Source: Vicinamibacteria bacterium
Lineage (GTDB): Bacteria > Acidobacteriota > Vicinamibacteria > Fen-336
Length of the DNA: 64,000 nucleotides
NCBI GenBank assembly: GCA_050246895.1
Contig: JBFWVE010000001.1
Span: 826,722-890,721 of the forward strand
Direction: 5' to 3'
A model generated the notes under the pieces. The model did no database searches and was not told where the DNA came from. It was given only the letters and a program-made list of their open reading frames with translations. The stretch's first letter is position 1, and each line of letters starts with the position of its first letter. Shown one piece after another: positions 25,167 to 62,016 of the stretch. Made by a program: the position numbers and the translations under genes.

Positions 25167-25607
25167 ATGCTCAAAGTCGGCGACGCCGCGCCCGACTTTC
25201 CGATCGGCGAGACGACGCTGCAGCGCATCCTGAAACAGCGCGAGGTGGTGGTCTTCTTCTTCCCCAAGGCGTTCACCCCGGGCTGAACGCGCGAGGCCGG
25301 CGGGTTCCGCCGGAACTATGACGCGCTGCGCCAAGCGGGCGCCGAGGTGGTCGGCGTGTCGGCGGACAGCCAGCAGCGCAACGACGAGTTCGCGCGCTCG
25401 CTGGAGCTGCCGTATCCGCTGGTCGGCGACCCGCAAGGCCGCATCCTGGAGGCCTACAGGGCGAAGTGGCCGGTGATCGGCATGGCCCAGCGCGTGAGCT
25501 ACGTGATCGGCCGCGACGGGCGCGTGCGCGAGGCCTACCGCAGCGAGCTCGACGCCGAGTCGCACGTCGCCCAGGCCTGCTCCGTGCTGTCGACGCCCGG
25601 CAGCTAG
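25167..25607 (+). CDS. Bcp/PrxQ-type peroxiredoxin with in-frame UGA (25284-25286) at the peroxidatic-Cys position; predicted selenoprotein
   Basis: The frame reads MLKVGDAAPDFPIGETTLQRILKQREVVVFFFPKAFTPG-TGA-TREAGGFRRNYDALRQAGAEVVGVSADSQQRNDEFARSLELPYPLVGDPQG.... It is collinear with E. coli Bcp, where ...YFYPKAMTPGCTVQAC... places Cys at the TGA. Track ORF 25347..25607 is the tail of this frame. A SECIS-like hairpin follows the UGA. Confidence 0.6.
25297..25313 (+). promoter_or_regulatory. SECIS-like hairpin (CCGGCGG-GUU-CCGCCGG) starting 10 nt 3' of the UGA in the Bcp-like gene
   Basis: A perfect 7-bp stem with a G-U-U apical triloop, seen directly. Position and shape match bacterial SECIS elements. 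Confidence 0.45.
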
Positions 25608-25644
25608 CCCTCGGCCGGCCGCGCGGTGCTAGCCTTCGTGCCGC

Positions 25645-26340
25645 ATGCCGTCGGTCAGCATCGTGTTCCCGATGTACAACGAGGAGGCCTACATCCACCG
25701 CGCCGTGCGCGCGGCGCGGGCGGCGCTCGCCCCGATCACCGAGGACTGGGAGATCGTGATCGTCGACGACGCCTCGAGCGACCGCACCGGCGCGCTGGCG
25801 GACGAGCTGGCGGCCGCCGAGCCGCGCATCAAGGTGGTCCACAACGCGCGCAACCGCCAGCTCGGCGGCTCGCTGCGGGCGGGTTACGCCGTCGCCACGA
25901 AGGAGCTCGTCGTCTACACGGACGCCGACCTGCCGTTCGACCTGATGGAGCTGCCTCGCGCCGTGCGGCTGCTCGAGTACCAGGAGGCCGACGTGCTGTC
26001 GGCCTTCCGTTTCGACCGCCGCGCGGAAGGCATCCGCCGCACGGCTTACACGCTCGTCTACAACGCGCTGATCCGGACGCTGTTCGGCCTCAGCTTCAAG
26101 GACGTGAACTTCGCCTTCAAGCTCTTCCGGCGCTCGCTGCTCGAGCGCTTCGAGCTGAAGAGCGAAGGCAGCCTGATCGACGTCGAGTTCCTGGTTCGCG
26201 CCCGAAAGGCCGGCGCTCAGATCATCCAGATCGGCGTCGACTACTTCCCGCGCACGCGCGGCGTCTCGACGCTCTCCTCGCCCGCAGTGATCCTGGGGAT
26301 CCTGCGCGAGCTCGCGCAGCTCTGGCGCGAGCTGCGCTAG
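25645..26340 (+). CDS. GT2-family glycosyltransferase (polyprenol-phosphate mannose/glucose synthase-like)
   Basis: ...VFPMYNEEAYIHRAV... and ...EIVIVDDASSDRTG... give the DxD-type GT-A fold. Length is 231 aa. The stop overlaps the convergent gene's stop at a CTAG. Confidence 0.85.
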   Translation: MPSVSIVFPMYNEEAYIHRAVRAARAALAPITEDWEIVIVDDASSDRTGALADELAAAEPRIKVVHNARNRQLGGSLRAGYAVATKELVVYTDADLPFDLMELPRAVRLLEYQEADVLSAFRFDRRAEGIRRTAYTLVYNALIRTLFGLSFKDVNFAFKLFRRSLLERFELKSEGSLIDVEFLVRARKAGAQIIQIGVDYFPRTRGVSTLSSPAVILGILRELAQLWRELR

Positions 26341-26999
26341 GCCTCGGCGGCCTTCTTGACGTGCTCGAGCAGCATCGTCTCGGGGCCGGCGCCCACGAAC
26401 TCCTGCGCCTCGCCGACCACCGTCTTCGGCACGCCCGAGATGCGGTACCTGCGCGCGAGGTCGGGGTAGCCCGTGACCTCGACGCCGTCGGCCGTGACCT
26501 TGTCGCTCTCGATCGCGAACTGGATCGCCAGGCGGACCGCCCGGGGGCAGTGCGGTCAGGTCGGAGTCGAGAAGACCTGGACGTGGACGGGCTTCTCGAG
26601 CGCCGCCAGGGCTTCCTTCGTCGCCGGCTGCAGCTGGCTCTCGCCGGCCGAGACGTCGAGGATGGCGTCGATCAGCGAGCCGAACTCGTAGCCGCTCGGC
26701 ATCCCGTACATGCGGATGCCGAAGTCCTTCTCGGCGCCCAGCACCGCGATCGCGGGGATGCGCGCGATGCCCATCGCCTCGGCCTTGTCCTTGTCGAGCA
26801 CGTAGTTGTACGACTCGGCCGTGAGCTTCGGGTGCAGCGCGCCGAGCTCCTCGACCAGCCGCCGCACCTGCTCCGAGTTCGGATCCGCGAGCGTCTGCGA
26901 GAAGACGGCCAGCCGCACCGGGTTCTTCAGCGACTCGAACTCCGTCTTGAGCTGCGACGCGACGTCGTCTGAGATGAGAGCCATGCTGCGTCCTTTCAC
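26337..26999 (-). CDS. Two-thioredoxin-fold protein (PDO/AhpF-N-terminal-domain-like) with UGA (26556-26558) as first residue of a UxxC redox motif; predicted selenoprotein
   Basis: Track ORF 26556..26999 ends ...HVQVFSTPT at a TGA. The same frame continues PHCPRAVRLAIQFAIESDKVTADGVEVTGYPDLARRYRISGVPKTVVGEAQEFV... (cis-Pro 'GVPKT' of thioredoxin folds) to TAG at 26337. TPT-U-PHC-P is a textbook Sec-x-x-Cys motif. A SECIS-like hairpin follows. Confidence 0.6.
26528..26544 (-). promoter_or_regulatory. SECIS-like hairpin (CCGGGCG-GUC-CGCCUGG) starting 11-12 nt 3' of the UGA in the thioredoxin-like gene
   Basis: A 7-bp stem (one G-U pair) with a G-U-C triloop, the same architecture as the hairpin in the Bcp-like gene. 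Confidence 0.45.
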
Positions 27000-27149: not shown

Positions 27150-28382
27150 TCAGATCCAGGTGGGGAACCAGGTCCAGGGCCGGACACCGCGGCCGAAGTC
27201 GTGGAAGAACCAGCTCGCGCGGAACGGGATGCCCAGCAGCAGCGGCAGGAAGTAGACGTAGACGGCGAGCGCCAGCGCGAGGTAAGCGCGCGCCCAGCCC
27301 CGCTGCGGGCCGTCCCAGTGGCGGTCGAGCAGGGCGCCCAGGGCGAGGCAGGCGTACGGGATCGCCTCGAACAGGTAGTGCGAATAGTTGAGCGTGCGCG
27401 GCGACAGGCCCCACGGCAGGTACAGGCAGAAGAAGCCGGCGCCGCAGAAGAGCAGCGGCCCGCTGCGCTCGCGCGCGGCCAGGACGAGCGCCCAGATCGC
27501 CGCCGCCAGCGACGACCACCACAGCACCGGGTTGCCGATCGCGATGATGCCGGCGACGACTTCGCCCGTCTGCTTCCAGTAGTACCAGGTGGGCCGGTAG
27601 AGCCACGGCCAGGTGTACCAGTTGCTGAAGTAGGGATGGCTCGCCCGCAGGTTGGCGTGGTAGCCCCAGATCGCCCTGGTGTGCGGCCACAGCTCCCCGA
27701 GCGCGTGGCCCTGCCGCATCCAGGGCAGGTAGCTGGCGACGTAGAGCACGAGCGGCAGCAGGAAGAAGGCCCAGAACAGCAGCGCCAGCTCGCGCGGACG
27801 GAACAGCCGCGCGCGGCGCGTGCCCAGCATCACCAGGCCCAGGAAGCCCCAGGCCCACAGGCTGGTCCAGCGCGTCGACAGCGCGAGGCCGAGCGCCAGC
27901 CCGACCGCGCTCATGTCGAGAGTCCCGAGCCGCTCGCGTGCGGCGGCGCGCACCACCAGCAGCGCCGCCAAAAGCTGGAAGAGCACCGCGAAGATGTTGG
28001 TCATCGCGACGCGGCTCTGGACCAGGTAGACGCCGTCGCAGAGCAGCAGCGCGGAGGCCAGCAGCGCCGCGCGCTCGGTCGCGAGCACGCGGCGCGCCAG
28101 CAGGTAGAAGACGGGGGCGAGCAGGATGCCCGCGAGCGCCGGGGCCAGCCGCCAGCCCCAGGCGTCGTAGCCCAGGAAGTGGACCCCGATCGCGATCAGA
28201 AGCTTGGCGGTCGGCGGGTGCACCCACTCGGTCGGGGCCGTGCCGTTCAGGTACTCGAGCGCGGTCTTCGCGTGGTAGACCTCGTCGAAGATCTCCTCGT
28301 TCGGCAGGCCGAGGCGCGGCAGGCGGAAGGCCGCCGCCACCAGCGCCAAGAGCGAGGCGGTGCGCAGGTCGCGGGAGCTCAG
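27150..28382 (-). CDS. GT39/PMT-family protein O-mannosyltransferase-like (phospholipid-carrier-dependent glycosyltransferase)
   Basis: The first TM segment (RTASLLALVAAAFRL) is followed by the loop-1 DE motif (NEEIFDEVYHAKTALEYL), then multiple TM helices. No ATG, GTG or TTG lies in frame upstream of the first TM segment. A CTG that shares TG with the upstream gene's TGA stop (cTGA) is the best candidate start, so the start coordinate is uncertain. Confidence 0.7.
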   Translation of the reverse strand: MSSRDLRTASLLALVAAAFRLPRLGLPNEEIFDEVYHAKTALEYLNGTAPTEWVHPPTAKLLIAIGVHFLGYDAWGWRLAPALAGILLAPVFYLLARRVLATERAALLASALLLCDGVYLVQSRVAMTNIFAVLFQLLAALLVVRAAARERLGTLDMSAVGLALGLALSTRWTSLWAWGFLGLVMLGTRRARLFRPRELALLFWAFFLLPLVLYVASYLPWMRQGHALGELWPHTRAIWGYHANLRASHPYFSNWYTWPWLYRPTWYYWKQTGEVVAGIIAIGNPVLWWSSLAAAIWALVLAARERSGPLLFCGAGFFCLYLPWGLSPRTLNYSHYLFEAIPYACLALGALLDRHWDGPQRGWARAYLALALAVYVYFLPLLLGIPFRASWFFHDFGRGVRPWTWFPTWI

Positions 28383-28882
28383 GGCGTCGGACCGGGCAGC
28401 GTCTTCGTGCCGATGCGGCGTTCGACCTCCGTGGTGGCGAGCAGCACCCAGGGCGACGAGCCGGAGCGCACGTACAGCTTGATCACCGCGTCCTTGAACT
28501 GAGGATGGGCGAAGAAACTGGCGGGCTCGCCGCTCGAGTAGTAGCGGCCGTCCGATCTCAACACCACCAGCTGGCTCTGCCCCGGGGCGAGCGTCTTGCC
28601 CTTGGGCGTCAGGTCCTCCCACGCCGTGCCCCAGTCGATCTCCTCCTCGCCCTTGCGGCGGAAGGTGGCGGTCGCTTGCACCGTACGCGCCAGCTCGCTC
28701 GAGACGTTCTCGAGGCGGAAACGCAGCGCGGGGGCGATGTACTGCCGCTCGCCGACCGCGGAGTCCACCGTCCAGTAGGCCTCCAGCTCGGTGACCCGCA
28801 GCTCCTTCGCGGGGTCGGGCGTGCGGCAAGACACGCCGAGCAGGAGCGGCAGCAGCGCCGCCGCGCGCAGGGCTCGCTTCAC
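28379..28882 (-). CDS. Hypothetical secreted protein or lipoprotein (167 aa)
   Basis: A GTG start (VKRALRAAALLPLLLGVSC...) overlaps the histidine-kinase TGA stop as GTGA, and a signal peptide with a Cys follows. This is the C-terminal third of track ORF 28379..30178. Confidence 0.55.
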   Translation of the reverse strand: MKRALRAAALLPLLLGVSCRTPDPAKELRVTELEAYWTVDSAVGERQYIAPALRFRLENVSSELARTVQATATFRRKGEEEIDWGTAWEDLTPKGKTLAPGQSQLVVLRSDGRYYSSGEPASFFAHPQFKDAVIKLYVRSGSSPWVLLATTEVERRIGTKTLPGPTP

Positions 28883-41041: not shown

Positions 41042-41181
41042 CGGCGAAGGCCGCACAGCCTCCCACGAACGGCGGGTCGCCCAGCGACGGCCCGCCGCTG
41101 CCGTCGATCTTCGCCCGCCCCGAGCGCGCTCCCAACGTTCGCCGCCCCTCAGGCGTCTCCCTTCCAATCCGAGGGAGAGCC

Positions 41182-43632
41182 ATGTCCATCTGGAGCGATA
41201 GCCTGGCCGACCTGCGCCGCGCGGGCCGGGGTCTCCTGCGCACGCCGGCGTTCACCCTGACGGCCATCGCCACGCTGGCACTCGGCATCGGAGCCGACAG
41301 CGCCATGTTCAGCGTGGTGGACGCGGTGCTGCTGCGGCCGCTGCCGTACTCGAAGCCCGAGTCCCGGGTGGTGCTCTGGAGCCGCTGGGAGGGCTTCGAC
41401 AAGACCTGGGTGTCCGAGGCCGAGGTGCTGGACTACGCGAAGCTGCCGAGCGTCGAGCAGGTGGCTGCCTGGTCGGGGGGCCAGGCCAACCTGACGGGCG
41501 ACGGCGAAGCCTCGCGAGTGGGGCGCGCCGCGGTCACGGCGAACGTGTTCGAGACGCTGGGGTCGCCGCTGCTGCTCGGCCGCGGATTCAGCCCCGAGGA
41601 GGATCGCGAGGGCGGCGAGGCCGTCGTCGTGCTGTCGCACGGGCTCTGGCGCCGCGCCTTCGGCGGCGATCCCGGCATCCTCGGCCGCAGCGTGGAGCTG
41701 GACTCGATCCCGCGCCGCGTGGTGGGCGTCGCCGCGCCAGGCTTCCGGCTGCCGACGGACTTCAGCGTCGACGCCGCCGAGCCGAGCGAGCTGTGGACCC
41801 CGCTGCAGATGAACACGGCGAGCCCGCAGCGCGGCAGCCACGGGCTCTACGCCGCCGCCTCGCTGCGGCCGGGCAGGAGCGTCTCCGGGCTGAACGCGGA
41901 GCTGCGCGCGCTGACGGCGCGCCTCACGCGCGAGGGCCTGTACCCGGAGCCGATGCGTTTCACGGCGCTCGCGGTGCCGGTCGCGGAGGAGGTCCAGGGC
42001 GGCGTGCGGCCCGCGCTGCTGCTGCTGACGGGCGCCGTCGCCTGCCTGCTGCTGATCGCCTGCGCCAACGTGGCGAACCTGCTGCTGGCGCGGGCCGAGG
42101 CGCGACAGCGCGAGATCGCCGTCAAGAGCGCGCTCGGCGCCAGCCAGTGGCGCATCGCGCGCCAACTGCTGGCCGAGGGCCTGGTGCTGGCGCTGCCGAG
42201 CGGCGCTCTCGGGCTGGCGCTCGGCCAGGCGGGCGTGCGGCTGCTGCTCGCGAGCGGCGCCTCCGGCGTGCCGCGGGCCAGCGAGGCCGGCCTCGACCTG
42301 CGGGTGCTGGGCGCGACCGCTCTCGTCGCCCTGGCCGCGACCCTGCTCTTCAGCCTGGCGCCCGCCCTGCGCGTGCTGCGGCTGAACCTCAACGACTCGC
42401 TGCGCGACGGCGCTCACGCCTCTGCCGGCGGGCGCCGCCAGCGACTGCGCGGGGCGCTCGTGGTGGGGGAGGTCGCAATCTCGGTGGTGCTGCTGGTCGG
42501 CGCCGGACTGCTGCTGCGCAGCCTGCATGCCTTGCAGTCGCTGGAGCTGGGCTTCGAGCCGCGAGGCGCCCTGACCGCGCGAATCTCGCTGCCGCGGGCC
42601 GACTACCCGGAGGCGGCCTCCCGGGTCGCCTTCTATCGCCGGCTGCTCGAGGCGGTGCGGGCGCTGCCGGGCGTGGAGCACGCGGGCCTCGTGCGCTCGC
42701 TTCCGCTCGGCGCGCAGATCGGCGACTGGGGCCTGGCGATCGAGGGCTATACGCCGCCGCACGGCCATCACGCGAAGGGCGACTGGCAGGTGGCGAGCGA
42801 GGGCGCGCTGCCGGCGCTCGGCGAGCGCGTCGCGCGCGGACGCGACTTCGCCGAATCCGACGGGCCCGACGCCCCGCCGGTGGCCCTCGTCAACGAGACG
42901 CTCGCGCGGAGCTACTGGCCGGGCCAGGACCCGCTCGGGCGCCGGATGCGCATGGGCAGCGACGCGCCGCGGCCGTGGCTGACGGTGGTCGGTGTCGTGG
43001 CCGACGTGAGGCACAACGGCGTGCTGGCGCCGATCAAGGAGAAGTTCTACGTGCCGCAGGCGCAGTTCCACATCTCGACCGGCAACTCCCCGCAAGGCAT
43101 GACGCTCGTCGTGCGCAGCGCCGGCGAGCTGACGGGGCTGGCGGCCCCGATCCGCGCGATCCTGCGAGGGCTCGATCCGAAGGTGCCGCTGGCGGGCGTG
43201 CGGCCGCTGACCGAGGTGGTGGCCGAGGCGCTGCGGACGCAGCGCCTGGCCGGGATGCTGCTCGGCCTCTTCGCGGCGCTGGCCTTGCTGCTCGCGGGCG
43301 TGGGGCTGTACGGGGTGATCGCGTATCTGGTCGGCCTGCGCACGCAGGAGGTGGGCATCCGGATGGCGCTGGGCGCGGACGCCGCGGACGTGCTGCGCCT
43401 CGTTCTCGGCGGCGCGCTGCGCCTGTCGCTCGCGGGCACGGCTCTCGGGCTGCTGGGCGCCCTGGGGCTCGCGCGGTTGCTCGGCAGCCTGCTGCACGAG
43501 GTGAAGCCCCACGATCCCGCGACCTATGCGGCCGTCGCGGCCGCGCTGCTGCTGGTCGCGCTGGGGGCGAGCTACCTGCCGGCGCGCAAGGCGACGCGCA
43601 TCGATCCCCTGCGAGCCCTGCGCACCGAGTAG
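41182..43632 (+). CDS. ADOP-type (double FtsX/MacB-like) ABC permease without adjacent ATPase
   Basis: ATG follows a GAGGGAGAG RBS, in frame within track ORF 39760..43632. The 816-aa protein has two MacB_PCD plus FtsX units (…FSVVDAVLLRPLPY…, C-terminal …IDPLRALRTE). Confidence 0.85.
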   Translation: MSIWSDSLADLRRAGRGLLRTPAFTLTAIATLALGIGADSAMFSVVDAVLLRPLPYSKPESRVVLWSRWEGFDKTWVSEAEVLDYAKLPSVEQVAAWSGGQANLTGDGEASRVGRAAVTANVFETLGSPLLLGRGFSPEEDREGGEAVVVLSHGLWRRAFGGDPGILGRSVELDSIPRRVVGVAAPGFRLPTDFSVDAAEPSELWTPLQMNTASPQRGSHGLYAAASLRPGRSVSGLNAELRALTARLTREGLYPEPMRFTALAVPVAEEVQGGVRPALLLLTGAVACLLLIACANVANLLLARAEARQREIAVKSALGASQWRIARQLLAEGLVLALPSGALGLALGQAGVRLLLASGASGVPRASEAGLDLRVLGATALVALAATLLFSLAPALRVLRLNLNDSLRDGAHASAGGRRQRLRGALVVGEVAISVVLLVGAGLLLRSLHALQSLELGFEPRGALTARISLPRADYPEAASRVAFYRRLLEAVRALPGVEHAGLVRSLPLGAQIGDWGLAIEGYTPPHGHHAKGDWQVASEGALPALGERVARGRDFAESDGPDAPPVALVNETLARSYWPGQDPLGRRMRMGSDAPRPWLTVVGVVADVRHNGVLAPIKEKFYVPQAQFHISTGNSPQGMTLVVRSAGELTGLAAPIRAILRGLDPKVPLAGVRPLTEVVAEALRTQRLAGMLLGLFAALALLLAGVGLYGVIAYLVGLRTQEVGIRMALGADAADVLRLVLGGALRLSLAGTALGLLGALGLARLLGSLLHEVKPHDPATYAAVAAALLLVALGASYLPARKATRIDPLRALRTE

Positions 43633-43638
43633 CGCCCG

Positions 43639-44697
43639 CTATTCGTAGCGGACGAGAGAGACCTTCAGCCGGCGCTCCTGCTGCGCCGAGGGCAGCCACT
43701 GGATCAGGATCGGGCTCTGGTACTTCCCGAGCACCACCGGCCCGCAGCCGTCGGAGAGCAGGAAGCTCACCTGCCGCCGCAGGCGCAGGAAGCGCACGGC
43801 CGGGTAGGAGATCGCGCGCACCAGCAGGCGCTCGAACGACGACTGGCTGATGCCGAGCGCCGCCATCGTCTCGTTGAAGATGTGGATCAGGTCGTAGCTC
43901 ACGTAGTCGAGCGTCTTGTGCGGCACGGCGCGCGGGTCGCGCAGGACGTTGCGAGCCTTCAGGGCCATGAAGTGCAGCGGGTTCCTCAGCACCTCGGGCA
44001 GGTCGTGCCGCATCAGCAGCGTCTCGAACTCGTTGACCGTGAGGCCCGCGTGGCGCTCGCCCGGTGACAACGACAGGTCGAGCCGGCCGCGCCCGATGCC
44101 GAGCTGGCGCGCGCGGTCCGCGATCTCCTCGAGCAGGCCCAGCCGGGAGTCGCGCAGGTTGAGCGAGTCGACGGAGTGGCCCGAGACCGGGAAGCCCCGC
44201 TCGAAGGTCTCGACCACCTGCTCCCGGTTGTAGCCGACGATCGTGGTCTGCCGCTCGCGGCTCCCCTGCGGGCCGACGCCGTCGAGGTCGATCAGGTAGA
44301 CGGGCGAGGGCCCGCGCTGGACGTAGGTCGCGCAGTTGCTGAGCCCCGACGAGATGTAGGCGAGGTGCGAATCGCCGTTGCGCGGCTCGCTCACGCGCTG
44401 CTCGTCCGAGAGGTCCTCGCGCAGCTCGATCCGGTCGTGCCGGTAGTCGGCGCCGGAGGGGAACACGTTCTGGAACGCCCGCATGAAGGGATCGACGCGC
44501 TCGCGGCTGTGGTCGAGGCGGGCGAGCAGCGCCTGGTCCAGGTAGCCGGCGGTCGTGTGATAGGAGCAGTAGGTCGCGCGGCGATACGAGCGGAGGATGT
44601 CCCCGTGGTCCCTTTCGAGCACCCCGGTCACATCGATCGCATCGTAACGTCCGCGCGGCCGGAGGCGGAGGGTGAGCTCCGCAGGCTCGGCCGTCAT
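43639..44697 (-). CDS. YjbQ/UPF0047-like protein with C-terminal extension
   Basis: Start taken at the internal Met (MTAEPAELTLRL...). ...YCSYHTTAGYL... and ...GADYRHD...NGDSHLAYISSGLSNCATYV match YjbQ core motifs. About 170 extra C-terminal residues are of unknown function. Confidence 0.5.
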   Translation of the reverse strand: MTAEPAELTLRLRPRGRYDAIDVTGVLERDHGDILRSYRRATYCSYHTTAGYLDQALLARLDHSRERVDPFMRAFQNVFPSGADYRHDRIELREDLSDEQRVSEPRNGDSHLAYISSGLSNCATYVQRGPSPVYLIDLDGVGPQGSRERQTTIVGYNREQVVETFERGFPVSGHSVDSLNLRDSRLGLLEEIADRARQLGIGRGRLDLSLSPGERHAGLTVNEFETLLMRHDLPEVLRNPLHFMALKARNVLRDPRAVPHKTLDYVSYDLIHIFNETMAALGISQSSFERLLVRAISYPAVRFLRLRRQVSFLLSDGCGPVVLGKYQSPILIQWLPSAQQERRLKVSLVRYE

Positions 44698-44822
44698 TCG
44701 GCCCCTATGGTGGCACGGGGAGGCGCTCGGCTCAAAGTCCAGCACCCAGCACCCCGCTTCGCCCGGGCACGCTTCATGCTGCCGCATTCCGGCAAGCGGT
44801 TCCTCGGAAGCTGCAGGGGGGC

Positions 44823-46553
44823 GTGCCGATGGTCTCCGAGCCGAGAGAGCTGGAAGCCCGCATCGACGAGCTCGCCGGGCAGCTCGCCGACGTGCGCCTG
44901 CGGCTCGTGGCGTTGGAGCGGCAGCGAACGGAGCCCGCGCTCCCGGCGGCGGGCGCGGCTTCGGAGCGGGTGGCGGGAGCGCAGGCGACGCTCGCCTCCG
45001 GGGAGGTTCCGGCCGAACCCGCCACCTGGGTGGCGCTGGCCGGTCGTGGCCTGCTCGTCCTGGGCGGCGCCTACCTGCTGCGCGCGCTGACCGACGAGGG
45101 CCTGGTTCCGCCTGGGCTGGGACTCGCCCTGGGCCTCGGCTACGTGGCCTTCTGGCTCCTCCTCGCCGACCTGCGGAGGGCCCCCGAGCGCGCCGCCGGC
45201 ACCGCCGTGGCCGGCATCGTCGCGCTGCTGGTCGGGTTCCCGCTCGTGCTGGAGAGCGTGGCGCGCTTCCGCATTCTCGGCGAGGCGGGTGGCGCCGCCT
45301 GCGTCCTCGCGCTGTTCTGGGCCGGGCTCGTGGTCGCCCGCCGCCGCGGCCTCGTCGTGCTCGCCTGGCTCGCCACGCTGGGCGCGCTCGGGGCCTCGTT
45401 CGGCCTGCTGATCGGCACGCGCCGGCTGGTGCTGTTCACCGCCCTGATGCTGCTGATCGCGGCCCGGGTCGAGGCGCTCGCGTTCCGCGATCGCTGGCTG
45501 GGCCTGCGCTGGCCCACCGCCGCCGCCGTCGACGCCGCGCTGGCGCTGGCGCTGACGCTCGCGCTGCGCGAGGGCGGGCCACCCGAGAGCTACGCGCCGC
45601 TCTCGCTCGAGGCCGTCGCCGCGCTCGGCCTGCTGCTGCCGCTGCTCTACCTGGGCGGCGCCGCGCTGCGCACGCTGCTGCACGACCGGCCGGTGGCGGC
45701 GTTCGAGGCCGCGCAGACGCCCCTGGCACTGATCCTCGGCCTGGGTGGCGCGTCGCGGGCGCTGGCCGCCGCAGGCGTCAGCGGCGCGTGGGTGGGGGTC
45801 GAGGCGCTGCTGCTCGGTCTGGGCTGTTACGCCGCCGCCTTCGGTGCGATCGAGCGGCGCGCGGGCCAGGGGCTGACCTTCTACGCCTACACCAGCCTGG
45901 GTGTCGTGCTGGCACTCTCCGGCAGCTCCCTGATCCTGCCGCCTCTCGCGCTCGCCGCTCTGTGGTCGCTGCTGGCGGTGGCGGCCGCCTACGCAGGAGT
46001 CCGCTACGGCCGGGCCACGCTGCGCTCTCACGCGGTGGTGTTCCTGGCCGCGGCCGGCGCCGTCTCGGGGCTGCTCGGCGGCGCGGGGCGCGCGCTGACG
46101 GCGTCGAGCGGCGGCGCTCCGCCGCTCGGCGCCGGCGCGCTGTTGGCGCTCGCCGCGATGGCGGCGGCCTACGTCCTGCTCGAGCGTGCCGGTGACGGCG
46201 AGCCCGCGCAACTGATGCCGAGGCTGGCCGCGCTGGCGCTGCTGGGCAGCGGCCTGCTGGGCACGTCGGTGGCGGTGCTCGCCGGCCTGCTCGGCGCGAA
46301 CGCCGACGCCGGCTGGCTGGCGGCCGTCCGCAGCGCGGGCATCGCGGGCGCCGCCGTGGTGCTCGCCGCCGGCGGACGCAGCCCGCGTCGCCCGGAGCTC
46401 GCCTGGCTCAGCTATGCGACGCTCGGCCTGGGAGCGCTGCACCTGCTGGCGGACGACCTGCCGCACGGGCGGCCCGCCACCTTGATGGTGGCGTTCGCGC
46501 TCTACGGAGGCGCTCTGCTCGTCGTCCCGCGCCTGCTGGCAACGCGCCGCTGA
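44823..46553 (+). CDS. Polytopic integral membrane protein with N-terminal coiled-coil (hypothetical)
   Basis: A coiled-coil-like ELEARIDELAGQLADVRLRLVALE precedes at least 12 hydrophobic segments. The product is Ala/Leu/Gly-rich but follows a regular TM periodicity, unlike the antisense ORFs. Confidence 0.6.
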   Translation: MPMVSEPRELEARIDELAGQLADVRLRLVALERQRTEPALPAAGAASERVAGAQATLASGEVPAEPATWVALAGRGLLVLGGAYLLRALTDEGLVPPGLGLALGLGYVAFWLLLADLRRAPERAAGTAVAGIVALLVGFPLVLESVARFRILGEAGGAACVLALFWAGLVVARRRGLVVLAWLATLGALGASFGLLIGTRRLVLFTALMLLIAARVEALAFRDRWLGLRWPTAAAVDAALALALTLALREGGPPESYAPLSLEAVAALGLLLPLLYLGGAALRTLLHDRPVAAFEAAQTPLALILGLGGASRALAAAGVSGAWVGVEALLLGLGCYAAAFGAIERRAGQGLTFYAYTSLGVVLALSGSSLILPPLALAALWSLLAVAAAYAGVRYGRATLRSHAVVFLAAAGAVSGLLGGAGRALTASSGGAPPLGAGALLALAAMAAAYVLLERAGDGEPAQLMPRLAALALLGSGLLGTSVAVLAGLLGANADAGWLAAVRSAGIAGAAVVLAAGGRSPRRPELAWLSYATLGLGALHLLADDLPHGRPATLMVAFALYGGALLVVPRLLATRR

Positions 46554-46614
46554 CGCAGGCGGCGCGCCGATCGCGCGCCTGCTCGGCCCGCGGACGTTCC
46601 CGCTCGCGGGCGGC

Positions 46615-47805
46615 TCAGGCCTGCTGCTGCGTCTGCGCGGCCTCGTGCTGCCACGGCGGCAGCAGCTTCACCAGCAGCCACAGGATGCCGAAGGGCAGCA
46701 GCATCACCAGGATCGCGGGCAGCATTCCCTCGCGCGTGGCGAAGCCCATCTTGTAGGTCGTGTAGCCGAGGAAGCTCTTCGAGAAGAGCTGCCCGCCGAT
46801 CACCACGTTCCAGCGCATCGCGAAGATCCCGATCAGGGTCAGCGCTCCCGCCAGCACGTAGAGCCCGCGGCGGGCGGCGCCCGACAGGTTGACCACCTGC
46901 ACGAAGGCCAGGATCGCGATCGGCAGCACCGCGCCCAGCATGATCTGCAGCACGATCTGCGACGTATAGAGCTTGGTGTGCACCATGAAGTCGAGCGTCT
47001 TGAAGGACTCGTCGGCCTCGTAGATGCGGTGCAGGATGTCGAGCAGCTCCAGCGAGAAGTCGACCACGAACGCGTAGAGCAGGTAGCGCGCGGTGGTGTC
47101 GACGCAGCTCATGTCGATCTGCCGGCCTTTTAGCCAGGTGACCAGCATGTACATCAGCAGCACCAGCGCGATGCCCGAGACGATCGCCGAGAACAGGAAC
47201 ACGATCGGCATCAGCGGCGTCGACCACCAGGGGTTCGCCTTGATCGAGCCGAAGATGAAGCCGACGTAGCCGTGCAGCAGGAAGGCGGAGGGGATGCCGA
47301 TCAGCGTCACGAACCAGCCGACCCTGTCGTCGACGCGCAGGGCCCCCTCGCTGATGTTGTCGGAGCCCAGCGTCAGCGCCTTGTAGAGCAGCCGCCTCGG
47401 CCCGCTCGAGCTGCGCGCGAGCAGCACGATGTCCTTGCGGTAGTCGAGCCAGATCTCCAGCAGCAGCACCGCCATCAGGTACCACAGGTAGACGAAGCCG
47501 AACATCGCCATCGCCGACGAGGTGTGCGGCGTGAGGTACATCTCGAACGAGCGCTCCGGCCTGCCGAGGTGCATCTGCAGCGGCAGCGGCGCGACGATCA
47601 GGAACGACAGCGCCGTCAGCAGCGCCAGCCGGTAGGTGGGCTTGACCGCCTCGACGCGGAAGATCCGCTCCAGCGAGGCCAGGATGAAGGCGCCGGCCAC
47701 CAGCCCCGTGATGAACGGGTAGAGCACGATCAGGACACTCCACTGCAGCTCGATCTCGTTCGGGTACATGAAGCCTTCGACGCCGTGCAGCAGGCTCTCT
47801 TGCAT
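46615..47805 (-). CDS. NrfD/PsrC-family quinol-interacting membrane subunit
   Basis: The 396-aa protein has 8-10 TM helices (…LVIAPLPLQMHLGRPERSFEMYL…) typical of NrfD/PsrC, and sits downstream of the FeS subunit. Confidence 0.9.
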   Translation of the reverse strand: MQESLLHGVEGFMYPNEIELQWSVLIVLYPFITGLVAGAFILASLERIFRVEAVKPTYRLALLTALSFLIVAPLPLQMHLGRPERSFEMYLTPHTSSAMAMFGFVYLWYLMAVLLLEIWLDYRKDIVLLARSSSGPRRLLYKALTLGSDNISEGALRVDDRVGWFVTLIGIPSAFLLHGYVGFIFGSIKANPWWSTPLMPIVFLFSAIVSGIALVLLMYMLVTWLKGRQIDMSCVDTTARYLLYAFVVDFSLELLDILHRIYEADESFKTLDFMVHTKLYTSQIVLQIMLGAVLPIAILAFVQVVNLSGAARRGLYVLAGALTLIGIFAMRWNVVIGGQLFSKSFLGYTTYKMGFATREGMLPAILVMLLPFGILWLLVKLLPPWQHEAAQTQQQA

Positions 47806-47815
47806 GTGGCTCTCC

Positions 47816-48580
47816 CTAACGCACCGAGCCGTCGAGGCCCGCGTAGTAGACCTTGGAGCCCGTCGCCATCTGCGGCTTCAGCACCTGCACCTTGTGCGTG
47901 CGCAGGAACTCGTGGATCGGGTCCGCCGGGTTCTTGAGGTCGGCCAGCACGCGCGCGCCGGTCGGGCAGCTCTCGCAGCAGGCGGTGGTCAGCCCCTTGG
48001 TGATGCGGTGGTAGCAGAGGTTGCACTTGTCGACCGTGTTGGTGCGCGGGTCGATGAAGCGGCACCCGTAGGGGCAGGCCTGCACGCAGTAGCGGCAGCC
48101 GAGGCAGTAGGACTTGTCCACCAGCACGACGCCGTCCGGGGACTCGAAGGTGGCCCCCACCGGACACACCTGCACGCAGGGCGAGTGCGCGCAGTGGTTG
48201 CACAGCTTGGGCACGAAGAAGTTCTTGGAGCCGTCGCCCGGGCGGTACTTCTCGGGGAAGCCGTCGTAGCCGCCGTTCGGCGAGTCCACCTGCGGGTGCT
48301 CGATGTCGCCGCCCGGCACGTGGTAGCGCTCGACCCAGGTCCTGAAGTAGTACGGTTCGCGCGGGACGTCGTTCTCTTCCTTGCAGGCGCGCACGCAGTT
48401 GCCGCAGCCGATGCACTTCTCGACGTCGATCGCCATCGCCCACCAGTGCTCGCTGAGCTTGTAGTTCGGGGCGGCCTCGGGCGTGCCCGCGAGCACGCTG
48501 TCCCAGGCGCTGGCGGCGGCTCCCGTCAGCAGCAGCCAGGTCGTCGACTTCGCGAGGAACTCCCGGCGGTCGGTAGTCAC
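47816..48580 (-). CDS. 4Fe-4S ferredoxin-type subunit (NrfC/PsrB/DmsB-like) with Tat signal
   Basis: A GTG start follows a GGAGGA RBS. The Tat-like …TTDRREFLAKSTTWLLLTGAAASA and four CxxCxxCxxxCP clusters (CIGCGNCVRAC, CNHCAHSPCVQVCP, CLGCRYCVQACP, CNLCYHR…CCESCP) are present. Confidence 0.85.
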   Translation of the reverse strand: MTTDRREFLAKSTTWLLLTGAAASAWDSVLAGTPEAAPNYKLSEHWWAMAIDVEKCIGCGNCVRACKEENDVPREPYYFRTWVERYHVPGGDIEHPQVDSPNGGYDGFPEKYRPGDGSKNFFVPKLCNHCAHSPCVQVCPVGATFESPDGVVLVDKSYCLGCRYCVQACPYGCRFIDPRTNTVDKCNLCYHRITKGLTTACCESCPTGARVLADLKNPADPIHEFLRTHKVQVLKPQMATGSKVYYAGLDGSVR

Positions 48581-49050
48581 TTGCGTTCCTCCGGTGGCGA
48601 GCCGGGCTCGTGCGGCGAGTGGCACTCGATGCACAGACCCGTCTCGGCGTGGTCCTTGGGCACGATCTGCGGGAAGCTCGCGGGCTTGGCGACGTTCGCG
48701 ACGTGGCAGACGAGGCAGGTCGTGCGGCCGTCGGGCCGCGCGGGCTTCTGCTCCGGGTCCGCGGCGTGGGCGGCGAGGGCGCCGTGGCAGGCTTCGCAGG
48801 CGACGCGCGCGTGCTTGCCGGCCGCTCGCTTCGTGCCGACGTCGTCGTGGCAGGCGAGGCAGTCGGCCTGGCCGGCGAACCTGGCCGGGCGGACCTGGTT
48901 GTCCGCGATCGCGCCGGCGCGGAAGTGGCCGTACACGCCGAAGTCCGCCGGCACCAGGAACACCCGGGCCAGCAGGAACAGCGCGATGCCGGCGACGCAC
49001 AGCCCGGCCACGCGCACGAGGTGGTCGGCGTCCCGGAACAGCTCTCTCAT
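48577..49050 (-). CDS. Membrane-anchored tetraheme c-type cytochrome (NrfH/cyt c3-like)
   Basis: An N-terminal TM helix is followed by four CxxCH motifs (CLACH, CEACH, CLVCH, CIECH). The stop overlaps the FeS-subunit start. Confidence 0.8.
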   Translation of the reverse strand: MRELFRDADHLVRVAGLCVAGIALFLLARVFLVPADFGVYGHFRAGAIADNQVRPARFAGQADCLACHDDVGTKRAAGKHARVACEACHGALAAHAADPEQKPARPDGRTTCLVCHVANVAKPASFPQIVPKDHAETGLCIECHSPHEPGSPPEERK

Positions 49051-56466: not shown

Positions 56467-57471
56467 CTGCGCGTCCTGATCGTCGGTGGCAACCGCTACA
56501 TGGGCTACGGCCTGACCTGGCGCCTGCTCGCGCGCGGGGACGAGGTCACCCATTTCCACCGCGGCACGCACCCCGATCCCTTCGGCGAGCGGGTCACCCG
56601 TCTCGTCGGCGACCGCCGCGGCGGCGACTTCGCACGGCTGCTCGCCGGACGCAGCTTCGACGCGGCCGTGGACTTCGCGGCCTTCGAGGCGGGCGACGTC
56701 GAGTCCGCGCTCGCCGTTCTCGAGGGACGCGTCGGGCACTACGTCCTGATCAGCACGGGCCAGGTCTACCTGGTGCGCGAGGGCTGCCCCTGGCCCGCCT
56801 CCGAGATGGACTACGAGGGCGCTCTGATGCCCCGCCCCGCCGATCCGCGCGACGGCTCGGAGTGGGACTACGGCATGGGCAAGCGCGGCTGCGAGGACGC
56901 CCTCGCTCGTGCGTTCGCCGCGAGCCGCTTCCCGGCGACACGGCTGCGCATCCCGATGGTGGACGGCGAGCGAGACCACCTGCGGCGCTTCGAGGCCTAC
57001 CTGTGGCGCATCCTCGACGGCGGGCCGGTGCTGGTCCCCGAAGGCGATCTGCGGCCCGTGCGCCACGTCTACGCGGGCGCCGTGGTGCGTGCGATCGCCG
57101 ATCTGCTGGGCCGCGCCGACAGCCACGGCCAGGCCTACAACCTCTCGCAGGACGAGATGCCGCCGCTGCCGGAGCTCGTCGGCGTGATGGCCGGAGCGCT
57201 GGGTGCCCGCCCACGCGTCGTGCCGGTGCCGGCAGCGCGCCTGGCCGAAGCGGGCCTCGACCTGCGTTCGGTCTCGCCGTTCTCGAGCCGCTGGATGTCG
57301 TGCCTCGAGCCTGCCCGCGCCAAGAGAGAGCTGGGCTTCCGCCACGAGCCGCTCCAGGAATACGTCGGCCGCATCGTCGCGTCGTTCCTGGCCCACCCGC
57401 CCGCGGACCAGCCGCCAGCCTACGTCGCCAGCCGCCCCGTCGAACTGGCGTTGGCCGCGCGGCTCTCCTGA
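56467..57471 (+). CDS. NAD-dependent epimerase/dehydratase-family (extended SDR) protein
   Basis: No ATG, GTG or TTG lies before the Rossmann motif; the best candidate is a CTG at 56467, 7 nt after a GGAGG that directly follows the PaaI stop (m/LRVLIVGGNRYMGYGL...). The C-terminal part of track ORF 55648..57471 carries the YxxxK region. Confidence 0.7.
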   Translation: MRVLIVGGNRYMGYGLTWRLLARGDEVTHFHRGTHPDPFGERVTRLVGDRRGGDFARLLAGRSFDAAVDFAAFEAGDVESALAVLEGRVGHYVLISTGQVYLVREGCPWPASEMDYEGALMPRPADPRDGSEWDYGMGKRGCEDALARAFAASRFPATRLRIPMVDGERDHLRRFEAYLWRILDGGPVLVPEGDLRPVRHVYAGAVVRAIADLLGRADSHGQAYNLSQDEMPPLPELVGVMAGALGARPRVVPVPAARLAEAGLDLRSVSPFSSRWMSCLEPARAKRELGFRHEPLQEYVGRIVASFLAHPPADQPPAYVASRPVELALAARLS

Positions 57472-57484
57472 CGACCTGCGTCAT

Positions 57485-57511
57485 CGCCCTCCACCCTATC
57501 CCCTCCCCCCC
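57485..57511. repeat. G/C-rich palindromic intergenic repeat, copy C (reverse orientation, right arm only: rc GGGGGGGAGGGGATAGGGTGGAGGGC)
   Basis: Matches GGGGAGGGGATAGGGGTGG of copy B. It lies 14 nt after the epimerase stop, between convergent genes. Confidence 0.4.
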
Positions 57512-57575
57512 ATCGCGACCCGCTGCGTCTGCGAGCGGCGATTCGTTTCGGGCTAAGCCACCGACCGGGGGGCAT

Positions 57576-58235
57576 TCACTCGAGCCGCAGGCCCACGAAG
57601 AGGAACCGGCCCTTCGCTTCCTCCGGCTTCACCTCGACCACGGCTGCGGTGCGGCCGCTGGCGCCGTCCTTCAGCTCGAGCTGGAAGGCGTAGCCCTCCG
57701 CCGTGGCCCAGTCGAGCACGTAGAGCCCGCCGCTGCGGTCGATCGGAACGTCGAGACGCGACTCCGTCTGCGCCAGCTCGAGGTCGCCCAGCGCCACGAC
57801 TCCCTCCTGCTCGACGCGCCGGAGCCGCAGGAACACGGTGTCGTGGCGGCGCGCGGCCAGCACCTCGAGCTTCGGCGCGAACACGACGCTGCGGGCCGCC
57901 GCCACGGCATCGGAAGAGGCGGGCGGGGCGACCACGAAGGCCGCGGCGGGACCGGGGCCCGTGCGCGACTCGAGCAGCGCGCGGACGTCGCGAAGCTCGC
58001 GAACGAGCGCAGAACGCTCCTCGCGCGACTCGGCCTGCGCGTTCTCCAGCGAGCCGAGGCGCGCCTCGAGCCTGCCGATCGCGCGCAGCGCACGCTCACC
58101 GGCATCGTCCTGCTGCGCCTCCTGGGCCACGGCGCGCGTTGCGCCAGCCCCCGTGAGGACCAGCGCGACGCCGAGCATCAGGGCGCCGGCGAGGGGCGGG
58201 CGCTCGGTGCGTCGAGGCAGAGCTGAAGCGAGCAT
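57576..58235 (-). CDS. Hypothetical secreted coiled-coil protein
   Basis: The internal Met start gives a signal peptide (MLASALPRRTERPPLAGALMLGVALVLTGAGATRAVAQ), followed by a coiled-coil-like segment and a beta-rich C-terminus. Confidence 0.5.
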   Translation of the reverse strand: MLASALPRRTERPPLAGALMLGVALVLTGAGATRAVAQEAQQDDAGERALRAIGRLEARLGSLENAQAESREERSALVRELRDVRALLESRTGPGPAAAFVVAPPASSDAVAAARSVVFAPKLEVLAARRHDTVFLRLRRVEQEGVVALGDLELAQTESRLDVPIDRSGGLYVLDWATAEGYAFQLELKDGASGRTAAVVEVKPEEAKGRFLFVGLRLE

Positions 58236-58303
58236 GGAAACCTCCGCGCCTATTCTCTGCCCTGGCGCCCTGCCCGCCGGGGAGCCGGCGATCGCGCCGG
58301 CGG

Positions 58304-60070
58304 TCACGGCACGTCGAAGGTCGTCGTGGCCGCAGCCAGGCGTCCGCCGCTGTGGCGGACGACCACGGTGAGGTGATAGCCGCCCTTCTTGCGCGGCGCG
58401 AGCACCGACGCAGCAATCTCGAGGTCGTCCCGGGCGAGCAGTTCCGCGTGCCGCCCCGGTGAGAGCTTCATCGCGACCGACCGGGCGAAGAAGTAGCGCT
58501 TGCCGACCGGCCTGCCGCCGGCGTCACGCAGCAGCGCCTGCAGCTCGACCTCGCCGAAGCGCTGGCCGTCGACCTCGCGAAAGACGAGGGCCTTCGTCGG
58601 CAGCAGCGCGACCACCTTGACCTCGCCGGCCTCCACTCGAGCCTCCACCGCGAGCCCGTCCTCCGCGAAGAGCCCGGGGAACAGCGCCGCCTGGTCGATC
58701 GAGCGCTCGGCCCGCTGCACGTCGCTCAGCCACTCGTACCCCTTGCGGTAGCGCAGCGAAAGCCCGGGACGCGCGACCTTCAGCTCGATCCGGTAGAAGC
58801 GGCCCGCCTTGCGCCCCGGCGGAGGCGCATAGGCGAGCAGGTAGTAGCCCCGGCTGTCCGTCATGGCCGCCTGCATGCCGCGCCGGAGGTCGTTGCTGTT
58901 GACGGACGCCACGGCCCCAGTCTGATCGGCCAGCGTGCGCAGGATCTCCTGCGGCTCGCGCAGGGCGCGGCCCTGCACCGATTGGAGGACGCCCTGGCTC
59001 ACCATCCGCGTCGTCACCGCGGAGGTGGCCGAAGGAACCGCCTCGGCGCCGGGACCGCCCAGGCCGCGCGCATCCACCGTGTACACCGACACCTGGGCTC
59101 GGTTGGCCTCGTCGAGCACGGCTCGCAGCAGCCGGGTCGAGTCGACCTGCGTGCCGCTCAGCGACGTATAGGTCTGGGACATCCCCAGGCCTGCCCGGCC
59201 TCCCCCGCAAGCCCCGTCCACGATCTCAGTGACGGTGGCGGCCGGCCGCATCGAATACCCAGCCGAGTAGAAGGCCACCTGCTTGCGGCCCGCCAGCGGC
59301 GCCAGATAGCGGGCGAGCGCGGCCAGCCCCTCCATCGCGACGGTCGTTCCCTGCTTCGCGTTCGCCAGGTAGACCCTGGCGAGCGACAGCGCGTTGCTCG
59401 GGCCCCCGCTGGTGCCGTCGCAGCTCCGGTTGACGTCCTCCACGAAGCTCGCGAAGGTCGCCTCGGAGTTGCCCGCAGACGGCTTCAGCGCCTCGACGGC
59501 GGCCACGAAGGCCGCGAGGTCGTCGGTGAACGGCTGGCGGATCTGCACGCCGCGGTCGAGGGCCACCAGCATCAGGCGCGTGCCGGGATCGACCTGCTCG
59601 CGGGCCATCGAGACGATGGCCTGGCGAGCCAGCACCAGGGCATCGGCCGGCGTCGTGTAGAGGTCGACGACCACCACCAGCGCGGGCGGCGCGCCCCCAG
59701 CCGTTCCCGGGGCCTCGGGCGAAGGCCGGTGGCCGGAAGGCTCGGGCGGCGCGGGCGAGACGACGCCCGGCATGACCGCCGGCGCTCCCTCGCGCGCTGC
59801 GACGAAGCGCACGAACTCGAGCCGCTGCGGCTTTCCCTCCTCGAAGACCTGGATCTCGTCGGCCCGCAGGTCCGTCACCGGGCGGCCGTCGCGGCCGCTG
59901 GCGATCAGGTCGATCAGCACCAGATCCACGCTCGCGCCGAAGGCGGGCCTCTGCTGAGGCGTCGCGCGCGAGGTCACGAGGGCCGCGGCCAGGCCCGCGA
60001 ATGCGACCACCACAAGGCCCAGGCCGCGGCGCGGCAAGGGCGCGCGGGCTTCCGTTGGAAGGCGCCGCAT
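58304..60070 (-). CDS. Secreted VWA-domain protein (VWFA-related acidobacterial-type), paralog 1
   Basis: Start taken at the Met 147 residues into the track ORF (MRRLPTEARAP... signal anchor). The ...LVVVVDLYTTP... VWA fold, ...VSVYTVDARGLGG... and a conserved C-terminal beta-domain are present. Confidence 0.8.
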   Translation of the reverse strand: MRRLPTEARAPLPRRGLGLVVVAFAGLAAALVTSRATPQQRPAFGASVDLVLIDLIASGRDGRPVTDLRADEIQVFEEGKPQRLEFVRFVAAREGAPAVMPGVVSPAPPEPSGHRPSPEAPGTAGGAPPALVVVVDLYTTPADALVLARQAIVSMAREQVDPGTRLMLVALDRGVQIRQPFTDDLAAFVAAVEALKPSAGNSEATFASFVEDVNRSCDGTSGGPSNALSLARVYLANAKQGTTVAMEGLAALARYLAPLAGRKQVAFYSAGYSMRPAATVTEIVDGACGGGRAGLGMSQTYTSLSGTQVDSTRLLRAVLDEANRAQVSVYTVDARGLGGPGAEAVPSATSAVTTRMVSQGVLQSVQGRALREPQEILRTLADQTGAVASVNSNDLRRGMQAAMTDSRGYYLLAYAPPPGRKAGRFYRIELKVARPGLSLRYRKGYEWLSDVQRAERSIDQAALFPGLFAEDGLAVEARVEAGEVKVVALLPTKALVFREVDGQRFGEVELQALLRDAGGRPVGKRYFFARSVAMKLSPGRHAELLARDDLEIAASVLAPRKKGGYHLTVVVRHSGGRLAAATTTFDVP

Positions 60071-60081
60071 GGTCTCCCTCG

Positions 60082-61806: not shown

Positions 61807-61982
61807 GCCCATCACCTCCACGATAGACGTCGGCGCGAGCGCGCCATCCCCCGATTGTGCGCCTTGAACGCCACCCCGGCCAGCCTGCAGCAGCTTAGTC
61901 GCCCCGCGTGGCTCGCTGGTTCGGATGGCTTGATGGTCACGGTGCACTCGCGGCGTGCCGCGGCCGGCATCGGAGCGGAACG

Positions 61983-62016
61983 AAAAAAGGGGCGCCCCCG
62001 CCAACGGGAGCGCCCC
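61983..62016 (-). terminator. Rho-independent terminator of the outer-membrane receptor gene (GGGGCGCUCCCGUUGGCGGGGGCGCCCC + UUUUUU on the minus-strand RNA)
   Basis: Seen directly: a 7-bp GC stem followed by an A6 run on the plus strand (U6 in the transcript), about 50 nt after the stop at 62063. Confidence 0.7.

Follow-up and report, generated by a model that had tools for sequence, protein, structure and literature searches.

Introduction

Protein disulfide oxidoreductases (PDOs) of archaea and thermophiles, such as those of structures 1A8L, 2AYT (Aquifex) and 2HLS (A. pernix) and SsPDO of S. solfataricus, consist of two thioredoxin (Trx) folds with a CxxC motif in each unit, and all of these redox positions are cysteine (Cys). 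The C-terminal active site of these enzymes carries reductase and thiol-transferase activity, and PDOs have been called exclusive to thermophiles (PMC7465337). The N-terminal domain of AhpF from Salmonella and E. coli (1HYU, 1ZYN and 4O5Q), which hands electrons to a peroxiredoxin, is similarly laid out as a fusion of two Trx folds, of which the second carries the only CxxC. Homologs of PDO and of the AhpF N-terminal domain are listed in two reviews as a family of UxxC selenoproteins "predicted with high confidence", with ABB15282.1 of Carboxydothermus hydrogenoformans as the reference member, and a comparative study of 2006 recorded the family in C. hydrogenoformans and Symbiobacterium thermophilum (PMC1794560). 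No experimental demonstration of any selenocysteine (Sec) member of this family, TIGR02187, was found in the literature consulted. The present analysis concerns a gene of this family at positions 26337 to 26984, minus strand, of a 64,000-nt stretch (referred to here as the window) of contig JBFWVE010000001.1 from a Vicinamibacteria metagenome-assembled genome (MAG), which contains an in-frame UGA codon that very probably encodes Sec.

In agreement with the catalogued selenoprotein PDOs, the predicted product is approximately 215–220 aa in length and contains two Trx folds with Sec in place of the first Cys of the C-terminal CxxC. It differs from these proteins in its host, which is a soil member of the Vicinamibacteria (Acidobacteriota) as opposed to the thermophilic anaerobes of the catalogued Sec members, and in that the Sec form is widespread across the class Vicinamibacteria, where it is interleaved with Cys forms. 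The two-Trx-fold layout and full-length homology are shared with the archaeal and thermophile PDOs; the CxxC motifs of the latter are, however, replaced by D-P-N-S at the N-terminal site and U-P-H-C at the C-terminal site, and genes of the window type came from mesophile-type metagenomes, whereas PDOs have been regarded as restricted to thermophiles. Unlike AhpF (approximately 520 aa), the window PDO contains no fused FAD/NAD(P)H thioredoxin-reductase-like module, but by analogy it may function like the AhpF N-terminal domain, with which it shares both the paired folds and the single redox motif in the second of them.

Gene structure and family assignment

The minus-strand reading frame extended from an ATG (26984-26982) through KPVHVQVFSTPT to a TGA (26558-26556) and continued through PHCPRAVRLAIQF and a C-terminal KKAAEA to a TAG (26339-26337), and thus comprised a complete gene of 215 codons. 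The TGA is codon 143 and occupies the first position of a U-P-H-C redox motif (26547-26558). Residues 1-142 (26559-26984) include an N-terminal Trx-fold unit that lacks a redox motif together with strand beta-1 (HVQVFSTPT) of the C-terminal unit, while the 72 codons past the UGA (26340-26555) encode the remainder of the catalytic Trx-fold unit, including a presumed cis-Pro loop, G-V-P-K-T (26421-26435). An earlier note, made from the sequence of the window by itself, had given the span of this gene as 26337-26999. The coordinates of the frame were all correct, but an ATG start at 26984 appears more likely than the upstream in-frame GTG at 26999 since the MALISDD encoded from this ATG also begins all of the homologs.

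Both halves of the gene look coding in the minus-strand frame because the G+C content at third codon positions (GC3) was high on either side of the TGA, at 1.00 across the 72 codons after this triplet and 0.93 before it, in a window of 72% G+C. An overlapping plus-strand open reading frame (ORF) at 25626-26972 was dismissed as an artefact of high G+C on the antisense strand, both homology and coding signal being on the minus strand. Many ordinary genes of the window terminate with TGA, which indicates that this codon is not reassigned throughout the genome. Further in-frame TGA codons flanked on both sides by high GC3 were noted in the window but, save for those of the present gene and of the bcp gene described below, were set aside because the translations were rich in Arg, Ala and Pro and appeared to be off frame.

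Searches for families and structures were performed with the 215-aa product after replacement of U by C. The equivalog model TIGR02187.2 of NCBIfam, named "PDO_seleno_TRX", was matched with a score of 238.5 bits as compared with the curated cutoff of 185, and this match was continuous across the TGA, extending from residue 6 to residue 212 and from position 2 to position 209 of the 209 positions in the model. Pfam Thioredoxin_3 matched residues 134-207 at 5e-13. Among structures in the PDB, the PDO of P. furiosus (1A8L) aligned end to end with residues 1-211 (E=4.5e-40), and full-length matches were also noted with 1J08, 2AYT and 2HLS (E=4.5e-40 to 1.7e-28 for the group), while matches to the AhpF N-terminal domains 1ZYN and 1HYU were weaker (E=5e-7 to 6e-6). 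Judged from these alignments, the protein is one polypeptide of about 220 aa with two tandem Trx folds, in whose C-terminal unit the C/UxxC motif lies at the N-terminal end of helix alpha-1. Thus, the proposal in the earlier note of an architecture like that of PDO and the AhpF N-terminal domain was borne out, as was its description of a redox-inactive N-terminal unit, since D-P-N-S is aligned with the N-terminal CQYC of P. furiosus PDO. The C-terminal CPYC of the latter protein is aligned with U-P-H-C and its AVPK with the GVPK of the presumed cis-Pro loop. The window PDO contains no Cys other than Cys146 of U-P-H-C and, consequently, Sec143-Pro-His-Cys146 would be its sole redox centre. Identity of the product as AhpF itself was considered and rejected; the protein is only 215 aa long, and its matches to TIGR03140 (4.8e-21) and TIGR03143 scored 74.9 and 106 bits, respectively, as compared with cutoffs of 502.9 and 688.

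Taken together, these findings indicate that positions 26984-26337 of the minus strand are very likely to be one gene for a cytoplasmic PDO of 215 residues and two Trx folds, in which the UGA is recoded as Sec. One alternative is that the UGA is a true stop, so that the product consists of the 142-residue N-terminal Trx-like domain only and the 72 downstream codons are either decaying or untranslated. Gene callers, as well as the NCBI and JGI annotations, do give products of 142 aa, and TGA does serve as a normal stop in this genome. In the alignment to PDO structures, however, the TGA falls after strand beta-1 and ahead of the active-site helix, and termination at this point would therefore deprive the product of the catalytic half of its fold, and with it of the only redox centre.

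Sec and Cys forms in related loci

Among the best 120 related protein clusters, two classes of match were noted, the one consisting of many proteins of 215–250 aa that were 53–77% identical to the window PDO and the other of about 30 proteins of 142–157 aa that were 75–100% identical. Every aligned full-length homolog (approximately 220 aa) had Cys in the column of the TGA, in the sequence TPT-C-P[YH]-C-P, which places the UGA exactly at the first CxxC position, as had been claimed, while the seven aligned short homologs all terminated at STPT. At 79 loci orthologous to the PDO gene, all from GTDB species genomes, the corresponding codon was TGA in 26 and TGC or TGT in 53, and the U-P-H-C of the window aligned with C-P-[YH]-C in these 53 Cys orthologs. 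Additional TGA loci were found in metagenome contigs (6 of the 10 loci recovered by a scan of such contigs) and by look-up of truncated proteins (3 loci, L097-L099). In all, 36 loci from differing samples and phyla were recovered with TGA at the position of codon 143. The hosts of these TGA forms included Vicinamibacteria, other Acidobacteriota (including Bryobacteraceae), Chloroflexota (Anaerolineae), Ignavibacteria, Zixibacteria and Methylomirabilota. The closest match among GTDB species genomes was 73% identical to the window PDO, and TGA was also present in protein clusters that were 92–99% identical to it.

The distribution of the TGA bears on the possibility that this codon arose in one MAG by an error of assembly or sequencing, or by mutation of a TGC or TGT Cys codon that recently inactivated the gene. 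A single base change would be enough for either, and the source of the window is indeed a metagenome-assembled genome. The same TGA was, however, shared by the 36 loci and by the 92–99% identical clusters, and was always accompanied by the hairpin-specific codon choices described below. A sequencing error, which the earlier note had raised as a concern, is thereby excluded, and an error or mutation confined to one genome is, taken as a whole, so improbable as to be negligible.

The frame downstream of the TGA remained open for 71–99 codons in every Sec ortholog whose contig did not break off within the gene. Differences from the window in this downstream part numbered 13, 5 and 30 at first, second and third codon positions, respectively, for the Sec ortholog at L001 and 7, 7 and 28 for that at L004; this concentration of substitutions at third positions indicates selection on the encoded protein beyond the TGA. 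Thus, orthologs did not end at the UGA without a conserved downstream frame, a second outcome for which the earlier note had allowed. With respect to a true stop at this codon, the open frame in Sec orthologs of several phyla, the third-position bias and the GC3 of 1.00 all speak against decay or lack of translation of the downstream codons.

MAGs from soil, sediment and wastewater, among them those of Vicinamibacteria, Anaerolineae, Methylomirabilota and Zixibacteria, commonly carried genes of the TIGR02187 type. A small glutaredoxin-like gene with the motif VYTTPT-[C/U]-[PG]-Y-C was noted in MAGs of Anaerolineae, approximately 0.4–1 kb downstream of the Cys-form PDO gene. This gene is another UxxC Sec/Cys pair, with TGA at L012:5448 and Cys counterparts at L011:4789 and L016:5022.

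A hairpin associated with the Sec form

The hairpin that the earlier note had described at 26528-26544, with a 7-bp stem and a G-U-C triloop, was present exactly as claimed. This element of 17 nt, on the minus strand, resembles a selenocysteine insertion sequence (SECIS) and consists of a 5' arm CCGGGCG (26544-26538), a loop GUC (26537-26535) and a 3' arm CGCCUGG (26534-26528). One of the seven pairs is G-U, and the stem begins 11 nt past the A of the UGA, so that the hairpin occupies nt 15-31 when the U of UGA is counted as 1 (stem 14-20/24-30 and loop G21-U22-C23 when this U is counted as 0).

The significance of the hairpin came only from comparison of orthologs, because by itself such a structure is unremarkable in DNA of 72% G+C. 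Stems were counted without regard to register, provided that they started at +12 to +14 from the U of UGA (U = 0) and that G21-U22 lay inside a loop of 3–7 nt. Of 30 distinct Sec forms, 28 had a stem of 6 bp or more without interruption, as compared with 5 of 57 Cys forms (Mann-Whitney p=7e-11). Resampling of synonymous codons for the peptide P-R-A-V-R-L according to codon usage in the window yielded stems of 6 bp or more in 9.6% of trials and of 7 bp or more in 3.2%, and the rate seen among Cys forms was that expected from codon usage, i.e., the 9.6% null. Constraint on synonymous codons was evident from the 21 Sec forms that encode P-R-A-V-R-L, all of which used CCC, CGG, CGC and CUG, although CCC and CGG are minority codons of the window (32% and 25%, respectively). 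The seven Cys forms that share this peptide used CCG, CCC or CCU for Pro, CGC, CGU, CGA, AGA or CGG for Arg and CUC, CUG, UUG or CUU for Leu, and synonymous sites that flank the hairpin varied freely among Sec forms. In a neighbour-joining tree, Sec and Cys forms were interleaved within the Vicinamibacteria clade and the hairpin tracked the Sec state, so that the contrast between the two forms does not reflect one phylogenetic split. Stems of other sequence were present at the same place in distant lineages, including CCAGUC/GACUGG in Ignavibacteria and GCGAGC/GCUCGC, CGGCAC/GUGCUG and CCGGCCGC/GCGGCUGG elsewhere. Fixation of hairpin-forming synonymous codons solely where the codon is TGA is again difficult to reconcile with a true stop, which, in view of this finding and of those for the downstream frame and the fold, we consider very improbable.

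Other results weigh against interpretation of the hairpin as a SECIS element. Folded as a single sequence, the hairpin was no better than shuffled sequences (z = -0.28 to -0.71). In a fixed register, 83% of cells were paired but only one pair showed double-sided change and the values for shuffles were not exceeded, and RNAalifold returned an empty consensus structure. The weakness of strict column covariation is attributed to shifts of 1–2 nt in the register of the stem in distant lineages; since such shifts defeat column-wise counting, stems were instead counted without a fixed register and Sec forms were contrasted with Cys forms. A conserved Val codon begins with the GU of the loop, the conservation of which is therefore confounded with coding. 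Finally, an uninterrupted 6-bp stem was lacking in two Sec forms (L019 and L029), whereas the stem was retained in two Cys forms (L093 and L096). Thus, of the covariation check suggested in the earlier note, the comparison of Sec with Cys forms favoured a SECIS element while classical covariation of columns remained weak.

The stems retained by the two Cys forms were ccgggcg-GCG-cgccugg (L093:1501-2163) and ccgggc-CGUCC-gccugg (L096:1501-2160), and L093 adjoined Sec forms in the tree. Both look like recent conversions from Sec to Cys in which the hairpin has not yet decayed. Among the 21 Sec forms with P-R-A-V-R-L, the synonymous sites on either side of the loop GU (26535-26538 in the window) were GCG-GUC in 11 and GCC-GUG in 10 and were never mixed, while all four combinations occurred at these sites in the seven Cys forms with this peptide. 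This perfect pairing of the loop-flanking sites may reflect a requirement of SelB for loop conformation or may simply distinguish two clades. For a 61-nt stretch, the minimum free energy favoured a different pairing that takes in the UGA itself; this alternative was rejected, as it gave a CCCC loop without G and a stem that was not kept in other lineages.

The SECIS of E. coli fdhF has an upper stem-loop of 17 nt (nt 15-31) that begins 11 nt from the UGA, contains G23 and U24 in the apical loop and includes a bulged U (U17), described as a requirement of E. coli SelB (PMC8659212). The window hairpin agrees with this element in length, in position relative to the codon and in its apical G-U (G22 and U23 by the same numbering). 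It differs in the 5' arm, which has no bulged U and forms seven uninterrupted pairs, in the loop, which is a triloop GUC (or pentaloop GGUCC) as opposed to GGUC, and in the lower stem, which was not evident in the window. The requirement for a bulged U need not hold for SelB proteins of other bacteria, and binding of the window hairpin by SelB is predicted.

Selenocysteine machinery and decoding of the UGA codon

Genes for the Sec machinery were not seen within the window, which counts against recoding of the UGA and in favour of a true stop. Thus, none of selA, selB, selD and a tRNA(Sec) gene was found in these 64 kb of a 1.93-Mb contig: Pfam scans of about 40 ORFs of the window detected no SelA, SelB or SelD, a scan of the window at Rfam gathering thresholds detected tRNA(Gln) only, with no match to a SECIS or tRNA(Sec) model, and ARAGORN found no tRNA(Sec) in the window or in 96 related loci. 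Indirect support for such machinery came from the second gene of the window with a UGA and hairpin and from the same UGA state in many relatives, and selenoproteins have been reported in Acidobacteria (PMC1794560).

The identity of the residue inserted at a UGA is not readable from sequence alone, and insertion of Cys, or of some other residue in place of Sec, by a suppressor tRNA must also be weighed. Both the selC* tRNA(Cys) and the allo-tRNAs of Acidobacteria have been described as potential nonsense or opal suppressors (Mukai et al., PMC5389517). In the same report, however, selC* was recorded from Firmicutes, Thermodesulfobacteria, Nitrospirae and Proteobacteria and not from Acidobacteria, and no tRNA of either kind was found in the window. 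Moreover, the UGA is at the catalytic Cys position of a family already catalogued as UxxC selenoproteins, and the hairpin maintained beside it shares the geometry of a SECIS that binds SelB. Decoding by a suppressor tRNA, although somewhat less implausible than a true stop, is thus also improbable.

For recoding to Sec, we infer the standard bacterial route, in which the hairpin with its apical G-U would recruit the complex of SelB, GTP and Sec-tRNA(Sec) to the ribosome and insertion of Sec at UGA 26558-26556 would compete with release factor 2. By comparison with the family, the resulting enzyme would cycle between a selenolate/thiol and a selenenylsulfide. It would probably be reduced by an NADPH-dependent thioredoxin reductase and could then pass electrons either to protein disulfides or to a peroxiredoxin.

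Neighbouring genes

A second selenoprotein gene, predicted on similar grounds and presumably the first of the two in the count of the earlier note, is located on the plus strand at 25167-25607, 1.3 kb from the PDO gene, and encodes a peroxiredoxin of the Bcp/PrxQ type (Pfam AhpC-TSA, 1.2e-28). An in-frame TGA of this gene (25284-25286) is at the position of the peroxidatic Cys (FPKAFTPG-U-T) and is followed by a predicted hairpin (25297-25313, plus strand) with a 7-bp stem and a GUU loop, which extends from +13 to +29, starts 10 nt past the TGA and is nearly identical in geometry to the PDO hairpin. Both TGA genes, both hairpins and the order of the genes were retained in L097, a relative with 92% identity.

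The Bcp with peroxidatic Sec is an obvious candidate acceptor for electrons from the PDO. In S. solfataricus, electrons pass from NADPH through thioredoxin reductase and PDO to Bcp, and the C-terminal site of PDO is the one that is used (PMC7465337). The assignment of Bcp as an acceptor is plausible in light of this system. The N-terminal domain of AhpF likewise passes electrons to AhpC, and regeneration of AhpC in this way adds to the plausibility of the assignment. Against it, bcp was seen beside the PDO gene solely in the window and L097 and was absent from this position at L004 and L010, so that adjacency is limited to close relatives and the assignment is weak. Small weight is given to a further proposal, which we offer as speculation: that the U-P-H-C of PDO and the Sec-peroxidatic Bcp might form a dedicated selenium-to-selenium relay for reduction of peroxide in an aerobic soil acidobacterium, with repeated switching of PDO between Sec and Cys in Vicinamibacteria that possibly tracks soil selenium.

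Directly upstream of the PDO gene and on the same strand is an ORF (27150-28829) for a membrane glycosyltransferase of the PMT family (GT-C, protein-O-mannosyltransferase-like; Pfam PMT, PMT_2 and PMT_4TMC). A PMT homolog occupied the same position and strand at 16 related loci (among L001-L005, L008, L081-L086 and L092-L098), which included Sec as well as Cys forms. A connection of PDO, through this pair, to a pathway of protein glycosylation or the envelope is considered less likely than one to peroxide defence. The ORF of 559 aa probably represents two genes; its counterpart in L097 and L098 consisted of a protein of 166–167 aa without a Pfam match and a PMT protein of 396–423 aa, and the Pfam PMT match in the window began at residue 204. 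On the other side, a GT2 gene resembling polyprenyl-phosphate-sugar synthases (25645-26340, plus strand) is convergent on the PDO gene.

Elsewhere in the window, a minus-strand cluster at 41149-49050 contained genes for a multihaem cytochrome c (48577-49050) and an NrfD-type membrane subunit (46615-47805) as well as three long ORFs of high GC3 (41149-43512, 43639-44787 and 44694-46466) that had no Pfam match at 1e-5 and may be in the wrong frame. Four successive long ORFs (244, 243, 734 and 640 aa) at 56750-62004 of the minus strand also matched no Pfam family at 1e-5, and adjoining these at 62063-63940 was an ORF for an outer-membrane barrel resembling TonB-dependent receptors.

Discussion

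The assignment in the earlier note of this protein to a classic class of bacterial selenoproteins was right but understated, as the exact family is already catalogued. This family has been known as a selenoprotein family since the 2000s and the name of the NCBIfam model itself includes "seleno"; the present gene, from a newly sampled lineage of soil bacteria, is a sound but ordinary member, and general knowledge of selenoprotein biology is unchanged by it.

The chief value of the finding is correction of annotation. A protein of 142 aa that is 100% identical to the first part of the window PDO (P0084) appears at NCBI as "hypothetical protein AB7O37_03540" of Vicinamibacteria bacterium, and the short calls of 142–157 aa, which made up about 30 of the best 120 clusters, are named "hypothetical protein" by NCBI and "alkyl hydroperoxide reductase subunit AhpF" by JGI. 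The latter name is misleading because the protein contains no reductase module and scores far below the cutoff for AhpF. Thus, public data systematically mis-annotate the selenoprotein PDO as a truncated protein, and reading these genes at full length with UxxC restores the only catalytic centre to the truncated calls.

No paper that discusses selenoproteins in Vicinamibacteria was found in the literature. The distribution of the PDO gene indicates that members of this class, which is abundant in soil, commonly use Sec in thiol-redox enzymes, and that the Sec form of the PDO family is spread over at least five phyla. With its interleaved Sec and Cys forms and a hairpin constraint that is specific to the former, the family provides a natural experiment on the gain and loss of SECIS elements within coding sequence.

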